Origin: Phycisphaerales bacterium
Lineage (GTDB): Bacteria; Planctomycetota; Phycisphaerae; UBA1845
Length of the DNA: 64,000 nt
NCBI GenBank assembly: GCA_013140575.1
Contig: JABFSN010000047.1
Coordinates: 5,036-69,035 of the forward strand
Direction of reading: 5' to 3'
In this document: piece by piece, positions 1,470-59,445 of the stretch
Position numbering within the stretch: position 1 is the stretch's first letter
Layout of the letters: each line of letters begins with the position of its first letter
Program-made: the position numbers and the translations under genes
The notes under the pieces: generated by a model
Databases searched by the model: none
What the model saw: only the letters and a program-made list of their open reading frames with translations
What the model was told of the DNA's origin: nothing

Positions 1470-1620
1470 AGGGGCCGTTTCTCGCCCGGAACGGGAGCAA
1501 TTTCCCCTCCCGGAACGTGGGCAAACTCCTCGCCCGGAGGGCGCTCGAAAGTAGCCAGGGGCTTCCGCCCTTGGAATGCGTTCCCGCGAATCTCCCGCCC
1601 GGAGGGCGGGCGAAACGCGT
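1470..1620. repeat. degenerate hairpin-rich repeat related to the family-2 element core
   Basis: Intergenic. GTAGCCAGGGGCTTCCGCCCTTGG...CTCCCGCCCGGAGGGCGGGCGAA resembles the family-2 core seen at 52810-52880 (TAGCCAGGGGCTTCAGCCCCTGG...TTCCGCCCGGAGGGCGGACGAA). No TIRs recognisable. Confidence 0.35.
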
Positions 1621-3656: not shown

Positions 3657-3905
3657 TCGACAACGCTATGACAATCCCAAGCACGATCGACGAAATCTGC
3701 ACCGTGCGACACACGGCCCTTCCCAGCCCCGGAATCTGCACCGTGCAACACCAGGCCCTTCCCAGCCCCGAAGGGGCGGCAGTCAGTAGCCGGGGGTGGA
3801 GTCCGCGACAGCGGCCCACACCCCCGGAATCGCCCCCGACGCAAAGACCAGCCCCAGCGGGGCGAAAGAAGGGATGGCGGGATTCGTGTTCACGGCGCTA
3901 TAGTA
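3657..3905 (+). mobile_element. MITE-like element, family 1, copy A (249 bp, carries an internal 39-bp tandem duplication)
   Basis: Degenerate TIRs related to TACTACAACGC (left TCGACAACGC, right end ...GCGCTATAGTA). Flanked by CTGAC at 3652-3656 and 3906-3910. Same core as copies at 50470-50680 (same orientation) and 8199-8412 (inverted). Core is a string of hairpins; frames are not conserved between copies. Confidence 0.6.
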
Positions 3906-3918
3906 CTGACTCGACCAC

Positions 3919-5394
3919 ATGAACCGGTCCATACCCACCCCGACGCTCTGCGGATGCTGTTCCGAGCCGCATCCGGTCCGTATCGTGTTTGCGGTTGCCG
4001 TTGCATTGCTGGCCTGGACCTCCACGCCCGGGTGCGGAGTCGACGAATCCATCCTGCTCCCCGCGCAATTCAGCGAGACACCGCCGCCCGACGAGTCGTC
4101 CGTGCTGGCCCGCTTCGCCGTCATCAGCGACACCCAATGTCTGGACGAAGAGTCGCCCGCGAGATTCGCGGGCGCCGTCGCCTACATTCCATCGGCGTGG
4201 CGACCGCACGAGGCCTATACCACCCAGTTGTTCGACGGCGCCGTCCGCGCCGTCAACCGCATTCACCATTCCGGGCGCACCATCGATTTCGCATTGCACA
4301 CCGGCGATCTGTGTGACAACGCACAAATGAACGAACTGCAATGGGCGCTCACCGTCATGGACGGCGGCCAAATCGATCCGCGAAGCGGTCCCGACGACCG
4401 ATCACCGGACCAATTACCGCCGCCCGAACTTGATCCGCACGCCCCGTTCGCGGCCCAGGGGCTGTACCGTCACGGCATTCACGGACCGCGGCCATCGATT
4501 CCCTGGTACGTCGTATTCGGCAATCACGATGCGTTCGCGTTGGGGACGTTTCCCATCGTTGAGTCCATCACCGGCGCCCGCCGCGCCCCGTTGCCGCTGG
4601 AAGGTCGCCCCGGCATCCTACTGCCCGTCATTCTGAATCCGGTGGGATTCCTCGCCCACGGCAACGTGACGCCGGCCATGCCCGGTCCCCCGACGTTCCT
4701 CGAAGTGCCACGTGTTGTCACGCAGAATCCGGGACGCCGGTTTTTCAACAAGGGTGAATTCATCGCCGCCATGTACCGGACGCAAACGGATCCGCCGGGT
4801 CACGGTTTAACCGACGACCCCTCGGCACCGACGTGGTACAGCGTCGCCCCGATGCCCGGTCTGCGCCTGATCGGGTTGGACACGTCGGACGTGCCCGTGC
4901 CGGTGCCCGGGTTTCCCTATTCCGAGGGCGCCGTTTCGATTGCTCAATCGCGGTTTCTGCTTCGGGAACTGCAACGGGCGTCCGATCGCGGCGAACTCGT
5001 CATCGTCGCGTCCCACCACCCCAGTCACTGTCTCCAATCGATCTACGGCTCCGTATTGAGTGAACCGTCTTTGCAATCATTGCTGAATGAGTTTCCCAAC
5101 GTCATCGTTCATTTGGCCGGCCACACCCATCGCCATCGCGTCACCGACCGCGGCGGCTACCTGGAGATCGAAACGGCGAGCCTTCTGGATTGGCCGCAGG
5201 AGGGTCGGCTGATCGAAATCTACCGCGACCCGACAAGTGCTGCCGTTCACATCGCCTATGAGACAATCAACCATCTCGATGACTCGCTGCCTCCGCTGGG
5301 CGAAGATCCGCTGCTGGAGCTTCGCGCCGAAGCCCATCGCCGCGCCGATCCGATTAATCTACTCCCAGCCCATCCATCTCCCGATCTGCGATAA
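3919..5394 (+). CDS. calcineurin-like metallophosphoesterase, lipoprotein-type signal
   Basis: Motifs VISDTQC, HTGDLCDN, VFGNHDAF, ASHHP and LAGHTHRH match the metallophosphoesterase signature. N-terminal LLAWTSTPGC resembles a lipobox. Confidence 0.8.
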   Translation: MNRSIPTPTLCGCCSEPHPVRIVFAVAVALLAWTSTPGCGVDESILLPAQFSETPPPDESSVLARFAVISDTQCLDEESPARFAGAVAYIPSAWRPHEAYTTQLFDGAVRAVNRIHHSGRTIDFALHTGDLCDNAQMNELQWALTVMDGGQIDPRSGPDDRSPDQLPPPELDPHAPFAAQGLYRHGIHGPRPSIPWYVVFGNHDAFALGTFPIVESITGARRAPLPLEGRPGILLPVILNPVGFLAHGNVTPAMPGPPTFLEVPRVVTQNPGRRFFNKGEFIAAMYRTQTDPPGHGLTDDPSAPTWYSVAPMPGLRLIGLDTSDVPVPVPGFPYSEGAVSIAQSRFLLRELQRASDRGELVIVASHHPSHCLQSIYGSVLSEPSLQSLLNEFPNVIVHLAGHTHRHRVTDRGGYLEIETASLLDWPQEGRLIEIYRDPTSAAVHIAYETINHLDDSLPPLGEDPLLELRAEAHRRADPINLLPAHPSPDLR

Positions 5395-8198: not shown

Positions 8199-8412
8199 TA
8201 CTACAACGCTATGAGCGCGTCTCCGGTCATGGCTTCTTTCGCCCCGCTGGGGCTGGTCTTGACCGTGCCAACGGCATCCGGGGGTTACGTCCGCTGTCGC
8301 GGACTAGACCCCCGGCTATTGACCGTAGCCCCTCCGGGGCAAGGAGGGACGCCGGCACCACGAACGGGGCCTCTTGATCGATCGCGCCCGGCATCGTCGT
8401 AGTGTTGTAGTA
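8199..8412 (-). mobile_element. MITE-like element, family 1, copy B (inverted relative to A and C)
   Basis: Best-preserved TIRs: left TACTACAACGCTATGA, reverse complement of right end TACTACAACACTACGA. Flanked by CTAA(T) on both sides (8195-8199 and 8413-8417). Core is the reverse complement of the copy A/C core. Confidence 0.65.
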
Positions 8413-11905: not shown

Positions 11906-12076
11906 GCTAAATAAGAACACACAAGAGGGAAACCGAGTTTCGTCCGCCCTCCGGGCGGAAAGAAATGGGGAACCCGATCCAGGGGCTGAAGCCCCTGGCT
12001 AAGACCGTGCGCCCTACGGGCGAGGCTTCGCGCGTCATGACGAAATCGGATTCCCTATTCCCTGGTTCAATTTAGC
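11906..12076 (+). mobile_element. MITE-like element, family 2, copy 1 (171 bp)
   Basis: TIRs GCTAAATAAGAAC / reverse complement of right end GCTAAATTGAAC. About 85% identical by eye to the inverted copy at 52741-52911. Core has three hairpins (TCCGCCC-TCC-GGGCGGA, CCAGGGGC-TGAA-GCCCCTGG, CGCCC-TAC-GGGCG). No clear target duplication. Confidence 0.6.
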
Positions 12077-12093
12077 GTTCGTCTTGGTTGCGG

Positions 12094-12236
12094 GGTACGT
12101 GTTCAGCGTGGGAAACTTCGAATCAGTGCCACGGGCGCAAGCCCGCGGGCGCCAATGCGCGGGGTGCCGCGTGAACCTCCAATCACCGGGCTTGCGCCCG
12201 GTGCTCTGAATTGCGGGGCATACGCTCAACAGGTAC
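12094..12236 (+). mobile_element. MITE-like element, family 3, copy 1 (143 bp) with 7-bp target-site duplication
   Basis: Left end GGTACGTGTTCAGCGT; right end ACGCTCAACAGGTAC (13/15 inverted match). Flanked by identical GTTGCGG at 12087-12093 and 12237-12243. Core shared with 51553-51694. Confidence 0.7.
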
Positions 12237-12301
12237 GTTGCGGACGGTATGTCCGCGATGATGAAATGGTTGGGCCCACTTTCGTCTGCGGAGACTCTGC
12301 G

Positions 12302-24792: not shown

Positions 24793-25599
24793 ATGTGCCG
24801 CATCGGCCGTCAGAATTACGACCTCGGTGGGTGGCACGGACAACGGTACTCCGTTGTCCGTGTTGGCGATGCGGTAACGTCGGAATCGTCGCAATCCGCG
24901 AACAAACGAATACACGGGCAAGCGGGTACGCTTGCCCGTGCCACCCGGCGAAATCGCGTTTGCCTATGGCTGATCGCGGCCACAGGAACGGCGGGTGGTT
25001 GCGGTTATTCCGGCGGCAAGGCCTGGTTCATGTCGGGGCTGTTCAAGCGGCCCACGATCGAGGCCGGTTTCGAATTCGGCGAAGGGCCGGTGGCCGTGTT
25101 GGTCGACGATTTCCAGGAACAATGCTATTGGCCCGGCGCGACGCACCTGTTGGCCGAGAAGGTCGTTCAGGCGTTGCTGGACCAAAACGTCGCCAAGATT
25201 GTGATCCCGGCGTCGCACATGCACCAGTTGCGACAGGGCGATCCGGATTTCGACGAGAAATCGGCCGCCGCCGTCGGGCGGCTGGTGAATGCCGATCAAT
25301 TGTTGTTGTTGGAGATTCGCTCGTTCGACGCCACGGAAACGCCCACCGAGGCGAGCGCGGCCGCCCGGATGAGTGTGGCCGCCAAGGTCATCAACGTGCT
25401 TGAAAACAACGACCGCGCCAAGGTGCGGTTGTGGCCGAGATCGCACGAGGGCGAAGTCATCGAGGCCGACATCACGGCCGCCGCGATCACGCGGGCGAAA
25501 TCACGCGAAGCCATTCTCGATGAACTGACCAAGGCGCTGGCGGAGCGTGTCGTCAGGCGGTTCTACGACCGCCCGATGGAAGACTTCGAAAAGGGATGA
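24793..25599 (+). CDS. lipoprotein-like protein, unknown function (paralog 2); start codon unresolved
   Basis: Mature part aligns with paralog 1 (VAVLV..., C-terminal helix). Lipoprotein-type signal RRNRVCLWLIAATGTAGGCG begins about codon 52 of the ORF. No ATG/GTG/TTG lies in frame between 24796 and that signal. A palindromic unit lies in this 5' stretch. Confidence 0.55.
   Translation: MCRIGRQNYDLGGWHGQRYSVVRVGDAVTSESSQSANKRIHGQAGTLARATRRNRVCLWLIAATGTAGGCGYSGGKAWFMSGLFKRPTIEAGFEFGEGPVAVLVDDFQEQCYWPGATHLLAEKVVQALLDQNVAKIVIPASHMHQLRQGDPDFDEKSAAAVGRLVNADQLLLLEIRSFDATETPTEASAAARMSVAAKVINVLENNDRAKVRLWPRSHEGEVIEADITAAAITRAKSREAILDELTKALAERVVRRFYDRPMEDFEKG
24908..24950 (+). repeat. 45-bp palindromic unit (CACGGGCAAGCG-GGTA-CGCTTGCCCGTG + CCACCCGGCG)
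   Basis: Perfect 12-bp arms at 24913-24924 and 24929-24940. Identical arms occur at 59408-59435 and, split, at 51538-51713. Confidence 0.85.
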
Positions 25600-50469: not shown

Positions 50470-50680
50470 TGCAACAACGCTATGACGATTCCAGGCACGA
50501 TCGACGAAATCGGCACCGTGCAACACAGGGCCCTTCCCAGCCCCGAAGGGGCGCCAGTCAGTAGCCGGGGGTGTCGTCCGCGACAGCGGACGACACCCCC
50601 GGAATCGTCCCCGACGCCATTACCAGCCCCAGCGGGGCGACAGAAGCCATGACCGGAGACCCCTTCATGGCGTTGTAGTA
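50470..50680 (+). mobile_element. MITE-like element, family 1, copy C (211 bp)
   Basis: Left end TGCAACAACGC; reverse complement of right end TACTACAACGC. Flanked by CTCC at 50466-50469 and 50681-50684. Perfect 15-bp-stem central hairpin at 50567-50600. Confidence 0.65.
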
Positions 50681-50759
50681 CTCCATCCGCTTTCAACCCC
50701 CCCCGTGTGCCGCATCCGCAATCCGACCCGCTATACTGCCCGTCACGCGGGAGCCATTC

Positions 50760-51525: not shown

Positions 51526-51720
51526 CTTTTCGGGTGGCACGGGCAAGCGTACGTATGTGATGAGCGACGAATACTGCGAATCAGAGCCGTGGGCGCAAGC
51601 CCACGGTTGCCTCAATCGCGCGGCAACTTGCCGATCGCTTCACCGGGCTCGCGCCCGGTGCTCTGAAAGCAGGAGGGGACGCTAATCACGTACCAGCGTA
51701 CTCGCTTGCCCGTGGTTTCA
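51526..51720 (-). repeat. 45-bp palindromic unit interrupted in its loop by a family-3 element
   Basis: Arms CACGGGCAAGCG (51538-51549) and CGCTTGCCCGTG (51702-51713), with the CCACCCGA tail read on the minus strand. Removing 51553-51694 and one AGCGTAC copy restores a 12-4-12 hairpin. Confidence 0.75.
51553..51694 (+). mobile_element. MITE-like element, family 3, copy 2 (142 bp) with 7-bp target-site duplication
   Basis: Flanked by AGCGTAC at 51546-51552 and 51695-51701. Ends GTATGTGATGAGCG / reverse complement GGTACGTGATTAGCG. Core hairpins CCGTGGGC-GCAA-GCCCACGG and CACCGGGC-TCGC-GCCCGGTG are shared with 12094-12236. Confidence 0.7.
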
Positions 51721-52009
51721 CCGTCCAGGCTTCTTGTCGGTCACACCCGCCGCGCACGCCACGCACGGACAACGGGGGAACGTGTGTGTGTTTAGCGACG
51801 ACTTGTGTCCCGCGCGCGTTTCCGCCCCGGCGGGGCGGCGGAATGTAGCCACGGGTGAAGCGATGCCCAGCGTCGCGCAACCCGTGGATTCCGTTGCGCG
51901 GGATTCCCCGCCCCGGCAGGGGCGGCGGATGTGACGCGGGAATCGCTAGACACGTATCCACGAATTGTCGCCCCTTGCCGCCGGCGGGGCGCGGCGCAAT
52001 GATAGCGCC

Positions 52010-52601: not shown

Positions 52602-52686
52602 CAGCTCCGAAGGGGCGACAGTCAATAGCCGGGGGCGTCAGCCCCCGGACCCGTCATCCCCCGCGAAAAAGCCCCGGAGGGGCGGC
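52602..52686 (+). repeat. truncated/degenerate family-1 core fragment
   Basis: CAGCTCCGAAGGGGCGACAGTCAATAGCCGGGGGCGTCAGCCCCCGG... parallels the family-1 core (CAGCCCCGAAGGGGCGCCAGTCAGTAGCCGGGGGTG...). No TIRs. Confidence 0.45.
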
Positions 52687-52740: not shown

Positions 52741-52911
52741 ACTAAATAAAACCGCGGAATAGGGAAACCGACTCCTTCATGGCGCACGAATCCTCGCCCG
52801 TAGGGCGCACGGTCTTAGCCAGGGGCTTCAGCCCCTGGATCGGATCCCCCATTTCTTTCCGCCCGGAGGGCGGACGAACCCCGGGTTCCCTTCTGTGTGT
52901 TCTTATTTAGC
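52741..52911 (-). mobile_element. MITE-like element, family 2, copy 2 (171 bp, inverted)
   Basis: Reverse complement aligns end to end with 11906-12076, including the TIRs. The TIR at 52899-52911 contains the stop codon of the HDOD gene. Confidence 0.6.
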
Positions 52912-57733: not shown

Positions 57734-58669
57734 ATGACGCCGCTCGTCGAAACAAACGTGGTACGACAATCGCAGCGGCGCATTCCCCCGCCGCCGGTCA
57801 AGCGGTTTCTCGACTATCTGTTCGTGGAATGCGGTCTGGCGGGCAATACCATTGTCGCGTACCAGGCGGACCTGTGCGAATTCTGGGACGACGTGGCCGC
57901 GGACGGCGAGCTCCGCGCCGATCTGGATATTGAAGACGTTCAGACGCATCTGATCGGATTACACCAGCGCGGATTGTCCACGTCGTCGATCGCGCGACAT
58001 CTGGCGTCGATCAAGATGTTGCTGCGTTTTCTGCATCAGCACGGTCTGGTGCGGCGGGACGTGGCGTCGCTGATCGAACTGCCCAAAAAATGGCACCGTC
58101 TGCCGCACGCGGTGCATTACGACCAGGTGGAGGCGCTGTTGCAGTCGCCGGACGCGTCGGACGAATTCCATCTCCGCGACCGGGCCGTGCTCGAATTGTT
58201 GTACGCGACCGGCATGCGGGTCAGCGAATTGACGGGCATCACGCTGGAAAGCGTCAATCTGGACGTCGGCTATCTGCGCTGCATGGGCAAGGGGCGGCGG
58301 GAGCGGATCGTGCCGATCGGGCGGACGGCGATCAAGGCCGTTCGCGCCTTCGTTGACGTGCTGCGGCCGGCGCTGGAGACGGCGCGATCGGGCCGGCGGA
58401 TGTTTCTGTCGCGGACGGGCCGTCCGATGGACCGCACCAGCATCTGGCGCCTGGTGCGCAAGTACGCGATTCGTGCGGGCATCGGGCAGCCGTTGCACCC
58501 GCACACGTTGCGGCATTGTTTCGCGACCCATCTGCTGGCGGGGGGCGCCGACCTGCGCGTGGTTCAGGAATTGCTGGGCCATGCCGATCTGGCCACGACG
58601 CAGATTTATCTGCACGTCGACGAGCACCGATTAAGCGAAGTGCATCGCCGATTTCATCCGCGGCCGTGA
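57734..58669 (+). CDS. xerD: site-specific tyrosine recombinase XerD
   Basis: N-terminal SAM-like domain FLDYLFVECGLAGNTIVAYQADL. Catalytic ...MRVSEL..., HTLRHCFATHLL and LGHADLATTQIYLHV. Confidence 0.9.
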   Translation: MTPLVETNVVRQSQRRIPPPPVKRFLDYLFVECGLAGNTIVAYQADLCEFWDDVAADGELRADLDIEDVQTHLIGLHQRGLSTSSIARHLASIKMLLRFLHQHGLVRRDVASLIELPKKWHRLPHAVHYDQVEALLQSPDASDEFHLRDRAVLELLYATGMRVSELTGITLESVNLDVGYLRCMGKGRRERIVPIGRTAIKAVRAFVDVLRPALETARSGRRMFLSRTGRPMDRTSIWRLVRKYAIRAGIGQPLHPHTLRHCFATHLLAGGADLRVVQELLGHADLATTQIYLHVDEHRLSEVHRRFHPRP

Positions 58670-59402: not shown

Positions 59403-59445
59403 GAATCCACGGGCAAGCGAGTACGCTTGCCCGTGCCACCCGACG
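59403..59445 (+). repeat. 45-bp palindromic unit (CACGGGCAAGCG-AGTA-CGCTTGCCCGTG + CCACCCGACG)
   Basis: Perfect 12-bp arms at 59408-59419 and 59424-59435. Intergenic, upstream of the ABC transporter genes. Confidence 0.85.

Follow-up and report, generated by a model that had tools for sequence, protein, structure and literature searches.

How did the two arms of a short, perfect palindrome come to lie 153 nt apart at one site in the genome of an uncultured Phycisphaerales bacterium? The 12-mer CACGGGCAAGCG has six exact matches on the two strands of the window, the 64-kb stretch of DNA that was analyzed, at positions 24913, 24929(-), 51538, 51703(-), 59408, and 59424(-). This count compares with a chance expectation of 0.87, and none of 100 shuffles reached six. 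At 24913-24940 and 59408-59435 the matches form perfect 12-bp stems closed by a 4-nt loop, and it is the third pair of arms (51538-51549 and 51703-51714) that is held apart by the 153 nt. The interrupted unit is made up of the following features.

51532 to 51537, + strand: GGGTGG head of the interrupted unit, common to all four units of this kind in the window and to similar units in other Phycisphaerae contigs
51538 to 51549, + strand: left arm CACGGGCAAGCG of the interrupted unit, an exact match
51546 to 51552, no strand assigned: left copy of AGCGTAC, the 7-bp target-site duplication, equal to the last 4 nt of the arm and 3 nt of the loop
51695 to 51701, no strand assigned: right copy of AGCGTAC, the junction being seen again in a short-read contig (L147)
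51703 to 51714, + strand: right arm CGCTTGCCCGTG of the interrupted unit, with the T at 51702 as the last base of the loop

Deletion of 51553-51701 leaves GGGTGGCACGGGCAAGCGTACTCGCTTGCCCGTG, a 34-nt unit composed of GGGTGG and a 12-bp stem whose two strands enclose TACT. This rebuilt unit is the reverse complement of 59408-59441 at 34 of 34 positions and differs from 24913-24946 at a single loop base; the reconstructed empty allele as a whole reads AACTTGCTTTTCGGGTGGCACGGGCAAGCGTACTCGCTTGCCCGTGGTTTCACCGTCC. By chance, a 7-mer would be repeated perfectly at a fixed boundary with a probability of ≈6 × 10⁻⁵ per copy. The original prediction had described a 142-bp element with terminal inverted repeats (TIRs) at 51553-51694, flanked by direct repeats of AGCGTAC, and both the element and the repeats are found at these positions. 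Its further claims, that the empty site can be rebuilt exactly and that the element transposed into the loop region at the apex of a palindromic unit with a 7-bp duplication, agree with the arms, the duplication, and the 34/34 deletion product. The left arm and all other coordinates hold as predicted, and only the right arm, placed at 51702-51713, has to be moved to 51703-51714.

A split palindrome could in principle arise with no insertion at all, either as an assembly chimera formed at repeats or as a long palindrome of ancestral origin with an outer stem that only looks like the short units. The short-read contigs do break within the insert, and the region is repeat-rich. The left junction is nevertheless present in Logan contigs L001 and L002 and the right junction in a third, L147, and these contigs, which come from separate assemblies of runs SRR11487824 and SRR11487825, agree with the contig of the metagenome-assembled genome (MAG). 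All three end inside the insert, as expected of a repeat. Because both junctions were recovered in independent assemblies of the two runs, the arrangement is not an assembly artifact. An ancestral long palindrome would not be expected to show the AGCGTAC duplication or the 34/34 identity to another locus, and the other copy of the insert lies without these arms. We find an origin without insertion scarcely credible; the nested insertion of a miniature inverted-repeat element (MITE) in a palindromic unit is well supported.

The host of this insertion belongs to a family of GC-rich, 34-nt units with a 12-bp stem and a 4-nt loop. Four occur in the 64 kb, all lying between ORFs that have Pfam support, and their common head is GGGTGG followed by CAYGG. 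In addition to the interrupted unit, the window holds an intact inverted doublet and an intact single unit.

24829 to 24946, no strand assigned: inverted doublet with heads outward, reading GGGTGG-CACGGACAACGG-TACT-CCGTTGTCCGTG, a 50-nt spacer, and CACGGGCAAGCG-GGTA-CGCTTGCCCGTG-CCACCC
59408 to 59441, - strand: single unit, identical to the reconstructed empty site

The doublet is built from two different stems. Other Phycisphaerae contigs carry units with the same head and the CAYG start of the stem, followed by different self-complementary stems and often arranged as doublets, with further doublets in L107, L114, L117, L136, and L137. At the one locus inspected for a RAYT gene beside doublets, the gene between two doublets of L107 looks like a membrane protease instead. 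A gene for a XerC/D-type tyrosine recombinase (Phage_integrase and SAM-like N domains) lies at 57734-58669, ≈740 nt upstream of the 59408 unit.

In several respects the host unit resembles the REP/BIME/REPIN class of repeats, being likewise a short, GC-rich, intergenic palindrome with a conserved head on one side and outward-headed doublets. It falls within the usual description of a REP as a 20-40-bp, GC-rich, extragenic, repeated palindrome that forms inverted doublets. The two described REP super-families are defined by a GTAG or a CGTC tag (PMC3733652), however, and the head seen here is GGGTGG. On these sequence features the units can be regarded as REP-like, and we do not claim REP membership for them.

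The insert itself is present twice in the window, as dispersed copies of 142 and 143 nt that are ≈77% identical. The copies and their parts are as follows.

51553 to 51694, + strand: MITE copy 2, a 142-nt non-coding TIR element, a single exact match that folds as a long hairpin
12094 to 12236, + strand: MITE copy 1, 143 nt, which aligns to copy 2 and lies outside any GGGTGG-headed unit
12087 to 12093 (left) and 12237 to 12243 (right), no strand assigned: GTTGCGG, the duplication flanking copy 1, perfect at 7/7
51552 to 51566, + strand: left TIR (C)GTATGTGATGAGCG of copy 2, with 2 mismatches to GGTACGTGNTNAGCG and 12/14 identity to the right end
51680 to 51694, - strand: right TIR GGTACGTGATTAGCG of copy 2, with 0 mismatches to GGTACGTGNTNAGCG
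51581 to 51606, + strand: subterminal hairpin unit 1, TCAGAG followed by CCGTGGGC, GCAA, and GCCCACGG, a stem that covaries across the family
51641 to 51666, - strand: subterminal hairpin unit 2, TCAGAG followed by CACCGGGC, GCGA, and GCCCGGTG, a motif found in at least 100 contigs

Within the window, the perfect 7-bp repeat around copy 1 bears out the expectation that another copy of the element would be flanked in the same way. All four ends of the two copies match GGTACGTGNTNAGCG with at most 2 mismatches, the two ends of each copy agree at 12 of 14 positions, and a longer pattern, AGCG-N13-14-TCAGNGC-N3-GGGCGCRAGCCC, also fits all four. Each end consists of a TIR of ≈15 nt, a gap of 13-14 nt, and then a hairpin formed by TCAGAG, an 8-bp stem, and a GCNA loop, and the two subterminal hairpins face one another with their heads outward. 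The two ends differ in their outermost base (GGTAC at one, CGTAC or CGTAT at the other), which leaves room for a duplication of 6 bp instead of 7. Neither copy has any coding capacity; the ORFs that overlap them are spurious and enter from the flanks.

The element is thus shorter than ≈300 bp, lacks a transposase, has TIRs, occurs in multiple dispersed copies (n=2 in the 64 kb), and leaves a duplication with a constant length of 7 bp (n=2 copies). By these sequence features we identify it as a MITE. Bacterial MITEs are described as 70-300 bp in length, with TIRs of 15-30 bp, non-coding, intergenic, folding into long hairpins, and mobilized in trans (PMC3733652). The window element shares all of the sequence-level features of the named families (Correia/NEMIS, ERIC, RUP, Nezha, and YPAL, among others) and differs from them in its termini and in its 7-bp duplication. 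The element amounts to a pair of back-to-back transposon ends, and its core resembles an inverted doublet of small palindromes. That core has the same layout as the REP/BIME/REPIN class on a smaller scale, with the head TCAGAG in place of a GTAG or CGTC tag.

Other identities for the insert were considered as well. A known RNA family was ruled out by an Rfam search of the insert, which returned nothing significant (best E = 0.63). No consensus sites were found that would give the composite a promoter or terminator role, and a BLAST search of 51526-51720 against plasmid and phage collections yielded no match. An M23-peptidase gene has its likely ATG at 12260, ≈24 nt past the end of copy 1 (window 12236-12263), so that the copy would be part of the 5' leader or promoter region of that gene.

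The two-hairpin core extends well beyond the window. A motif scan of species-representative genomes found it in at least 100 contigs, most of which belong to MAGs of Phycisphaerae/Planctomycetota (at least 16 of these); the query was the second hairpin motif, which is too general to single out the window subfamily, and the contigs listed come from genomes other than the source genome. The first hairpin, no part of the query, usually lies upstream, where its stems are different yet complementary. Among 134 distinct TCAGAG-N8-GNNA-N8 units, the stem is fully paired (8/8) in 81 and paired at 7/8 positions in 22. When 72 distinct units are aligned, pairing extends to 90.8% of cells in the core stems, compared with 74.3% in shuffles, and double-sided changes number 89 against 33.7; none of 500 shuffles reached the observed covariation.

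The same core sits between three types of end, which are associated with 7-bp duplications in the window, 9-bp duplications in the MAG JAJDDY (OFTM250), and 4-bp duplications in the metagenome Ga0326597. JAJDDY holds near-identical copies of a sister MITE of ≈140 nt that ends in GGGTSCGTGACA and is flanked by 9-bp duplications (TGCAGGAAC in L073 and GTCTTGGAG in L043). This sister MITE seems to have been active recently in the JAJDDY genome, fragmenting its assembly. Its copies were seen in L013, L035, L038, L043, L064, L066, L067, L069, L073, L078, and L085, many of them at contig ends, and L064 and L067 resemble the two sides of one insertion. When an end-specific pattern was used to scan metagenomes, it picked out a 131-nt sister MITE in Ga0326597, which has termini YATGACAGCGCTAC, is present in ≈25 copies (loci L103-L146), and forms a subfamily distinct from that of the window. 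These copies are flanked by YTAR, with a direct repeat in 14/24, six of which are non-palindromic direct matches. We take the 4-bp YTAR duplication of this subfamily to be the signature of IS5. The likeness to the IS5 group is confined to this sister subfamily, for in the window the duplications are 7 bp long and the sites are not YTAR.

The window elements are thus part of a superfamily of MITEs that spans the class and leaves a target duplication in every member. The duplications occur in the sister subfamilies too, so that the whole family has the behavior of cut-and-fill transposons. Neither the TCAGAG-headed subterminal hairpin units nor their reuse between three end and duplication classes is known to us from the named MITE families.

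Several further occurrences of the core have a different setting. In L014 (about 560-640) a two-hairpin core lies ≈35 nt past the 3' end of a 16S rRNA gene (…GGATCACCTCCTTTCT…), and in L047 (about 4290-4400) one directly adjoins a tRNA gene, in both cases with no obvious terminal repeats. The second hairpin unit also forms tandem or clustered arrays of 3-4 copies, spaced by 30-120 nt, in L077 (1-603) and L083 (1690-2520), which suggests that hairpin units can also amplify locally. Complete two-hairpin cores were seen outside Planctomycetota bins in L044 (a Rokuibacteriota MAG) and L079 (a Chromatiaceae MAG), reflecting either binning contamination or horizontal spread.

These observations raise the question of what the mobile entity is. 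Transposition by HUH enzymes, such as those of IS200/IS605 and the RAYTs, makes no target duplication. If the two-hairpin core were itself the mobile entity, a REPIN-like doublet moved on single-stranded DNA by an HUH/tyrosine (RAYT-type) transposase, the TIRs and the direct repeats would be incidental. The core does have the form of two headed palindromes in an inverted doublet, and its stems covary; it is found between three end types, and it occurs without recognizable TIRs, in tandem arrays, and beside rRNA or tRNA genes (L014, L047, L077, and L083). Yet perfect 7-bp repeats lie exactly outside the TIRs at both local copies, unlike the products of HUH enzymes, 9-bp and 4-bp repeats flank the sister subfamilies, and no RAYT was found at the one locus inspected. 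We consider this account highly unlikely. A further proposal is that the core is an independently selected or mobile module of Phycisphaerae that has been packaged at least three times, with 4-, 7-, and 9-bp duplications, and that window-type ends additionally home to the loops of GGGTGG palindromes. This combination we regard as unlikely.

The reading that we prefer, with a probability of roughly 0.85, is that a MITE was moved by a transposase acting in trans into the apex of a REP-like palindrome, with staggered cuts 7 bp apart that were then filled in. The element would be a non-autonomous transposon of DDE type (a MITE of 142-143 nt), its transposase being supplied from outside the window. 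It would have inserted into the apex of the REP-like unit, 53 nt downstream of a gene, with the cuts enclosing 4 bases from the end of the left arm and 3 of the loop, and fill-in of the gaps would have produced the AGCGTAC duplication. We infer the DDE chemistry, the supply of transposase in trans, and the timing of the event; the 7-bp length of the duplication does not point to any one IS family. No substitution is present in 44 flanking positions (the head, both arms, and both copies of the duplication), and for this reason the event is probably not very old. That the two local copies differ by ≈23% reflects an older divergence within the family.

The original prediction had gone further and proposed an active or recently active system. 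This is not borne out at the locus, where the local copies are only ≈77% identical, no transposase was found, and only the filled allele is recovered from the two runs. No near-identical copies of the window subfamily were found, and among the Logan contigs of SRR11487824 and SRR11487825, which hold the filled allele only, there was no empty allele. The flanking gene encodes a 239-aa protein (NOS99766.1), the sole member of its 90% cluster, with one homolog at 41% identity; without a close homolog of this gene there is no orthologous site to compare. The suggestion that a longer element with the same termini might encode the transposase likewise found no match in the window or in 146 related loci. 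A search of the same sequences for paired ends 400-5000 bp apart returned a single pair, which represents two separate MITEs in L117, and tblastn of these sequences with one IS5 transposase sequence as the query gave no match.

Why did the element land in a palindrome? One answer is a target-specific system, in which the cognate transposase recognizes the palindromic unit or an extruded hairpin and inserts preferentially at the loop, in the way of IS1397 and ISKpn1 at enterobacterial palindromic units. The insertion at the apex of a perfect palindrome with a 12-bp stem speaks for such a system. The duplication of copy 1 also reaches into the 5' arm of an unrelated small hairpin, GCGGAC-GGTAT-GTCCGC; the overlap is at the base of this hairpin and not at its apex, and copy 1 lies outside any unit of the family, both of which count against loop targeting.

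The DNA immediately downstream of the split unit could supply a second case, and two features are relevant.

51764 to 51775, + strand: orphan left arm CACGGACAACGG of a variant unit, an exact 12-mer found elsewhere only at 24835 and 24851(-)
51776 to 51960, no strand assigned: candidate second element, a long palindrome whose ends, GTGTGTGTTTAGCG and CGCTAGACACGTATC, are TIR-like and whose cargo is different, from a fold z of -4.7 and alignments of the ends

The orphan arm starts 49 nt past the split unit, compared with a spacer of 50 nt in the intact doublet, and is likely the remnant of the second half of an inverted doublet. The second element has a match to the TIR pattern on the minus strand at 51944-51958 and contains two CCGCCCCGGC(N)GGGGCGG hairpins and a degenerate, unit-like center. 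An arm that would have been the doublet partner, with a second element bearing TIR-like ends within 8 nt of it, fits loop targeting. However, no target duplication was found around 51776-51960, and the right arm expected for the second element was not detectable (p = 0.73). We treat a second nested insertion at 51764-51960 as a lead only.

The wider sample argues against a preference for loops. In the window and ≈0.9 Mb of related contigs, about 1 Mb together, just 1 of 63 GGGTGG-headed units is split, namely that at 51532. The sister subfamilies use YTAR or unrelated 9-mers, the ≈25 copies in Ga0326597 being inserted at YTAR tetranucleotides and not in palindrome loops. Five of 25 sister MITEs lie within 40 nt of a GGGTGG head, compared with ≈0.6 expected genome-wide; this co-location was rejected as a sign of targeting, since the enrichment is roughly that expected from the joint confinement of both repeat types to intergenic DNA. 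The proposed preference for structured DNA is not supported by these counts, with one of two local copies in the palindrome family, one of 63 units split, and the sisters at YTAR. A chance hit in a small intergenic space where both repeat types accumulate is the simplest account of the palindromic target, and we see loop targeting by a dedicated transposase as a minor possibility.

A transposase of this kind would have precedents. Target duplications measure 3-4 bp in the IS3 family and are absent in the IS110 family. The window MITE is unlike IS1397 and ISKpn1, which are autonomous IS3-family elements with 3-4-bp duplications, and the window copies within palindromic units (1/2) are too few to establish loop insertion of the IS1397 type. 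The REP-targeting elements as a group (IS1397 and ISKpn1 of the IS3 family, IS621, ISPpu9, ISPpu10, ISPa11, and ISRm22, among others) likewise lie inside a repetitive extragenic palindrome. They differ in being autonomous and of demonstrated specificity (seven of seven ISPpu9 copies are in REPs), whereas the present case is a single instance of a non-coding, 142-nt MITE with a 7-bp duplication. REPs are documented transposition hot spots across five IS families, with IS1397, ISKpn1, and IS621 experimentally REP-specific and ISPpu9 and ISPpu10 known as genome-wide cases (PMC1525189). Since IS elements that target REPs are already known, the target idea is not new (PMC1525189).

The intergenic DNA of the window is a pile-up of several repeat families. 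One match to the Rfam family Acido-Lenti-1 (RF01687), at 52603-52648(-), is above the gathering score at 51.9 bits, and others fall below it at 27-31 bits (11979-12022(+), 52795-52838(-), 1531-1574(-), 3764-3793(-), and 50539-50568(-)). All of the RF01687 matches lie inside larger dispersed repeats, and the motif therefore behaves here as a multicopy repeat module and not as a single sRNA gene. Further intergenic repeat families, 170-180 nt long, 85-89% identical, and rich in GC hairpins, include the pairs 3730-3907 with 50505-50682 and 11906-12075 with 52742-52911 (inverted), as well as 8199-8348. One of these repeats ends ≈18 nt before MITE copy 1.

What is known of transposon target choice is unchanged by this locus. 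The phenomenon is known from other bacteria and does not represent a new kind of system. A preference for loops, if real, would add another REP-recognizing transposase, which would be of moderate interest. Were both the packaging of the core as a module and the homing to loops true, they would amount to a layered ecology of palindromic repeats that parasitize each other in a poorly studied phylum. The locus provides a clean, datable footprint of transposition in an uncultured Phycisphaerales genome, within an under-studied class, and brings to light two undescribed repeat families: the doublet-forming palindromes headed by GGGTGG and a superfamily of MITEs whose two-hairpin core is conserved and covaries. 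Both should be of use in annotation, offer strain-typing markers, and help to explain why MAG assemblies from this class break.
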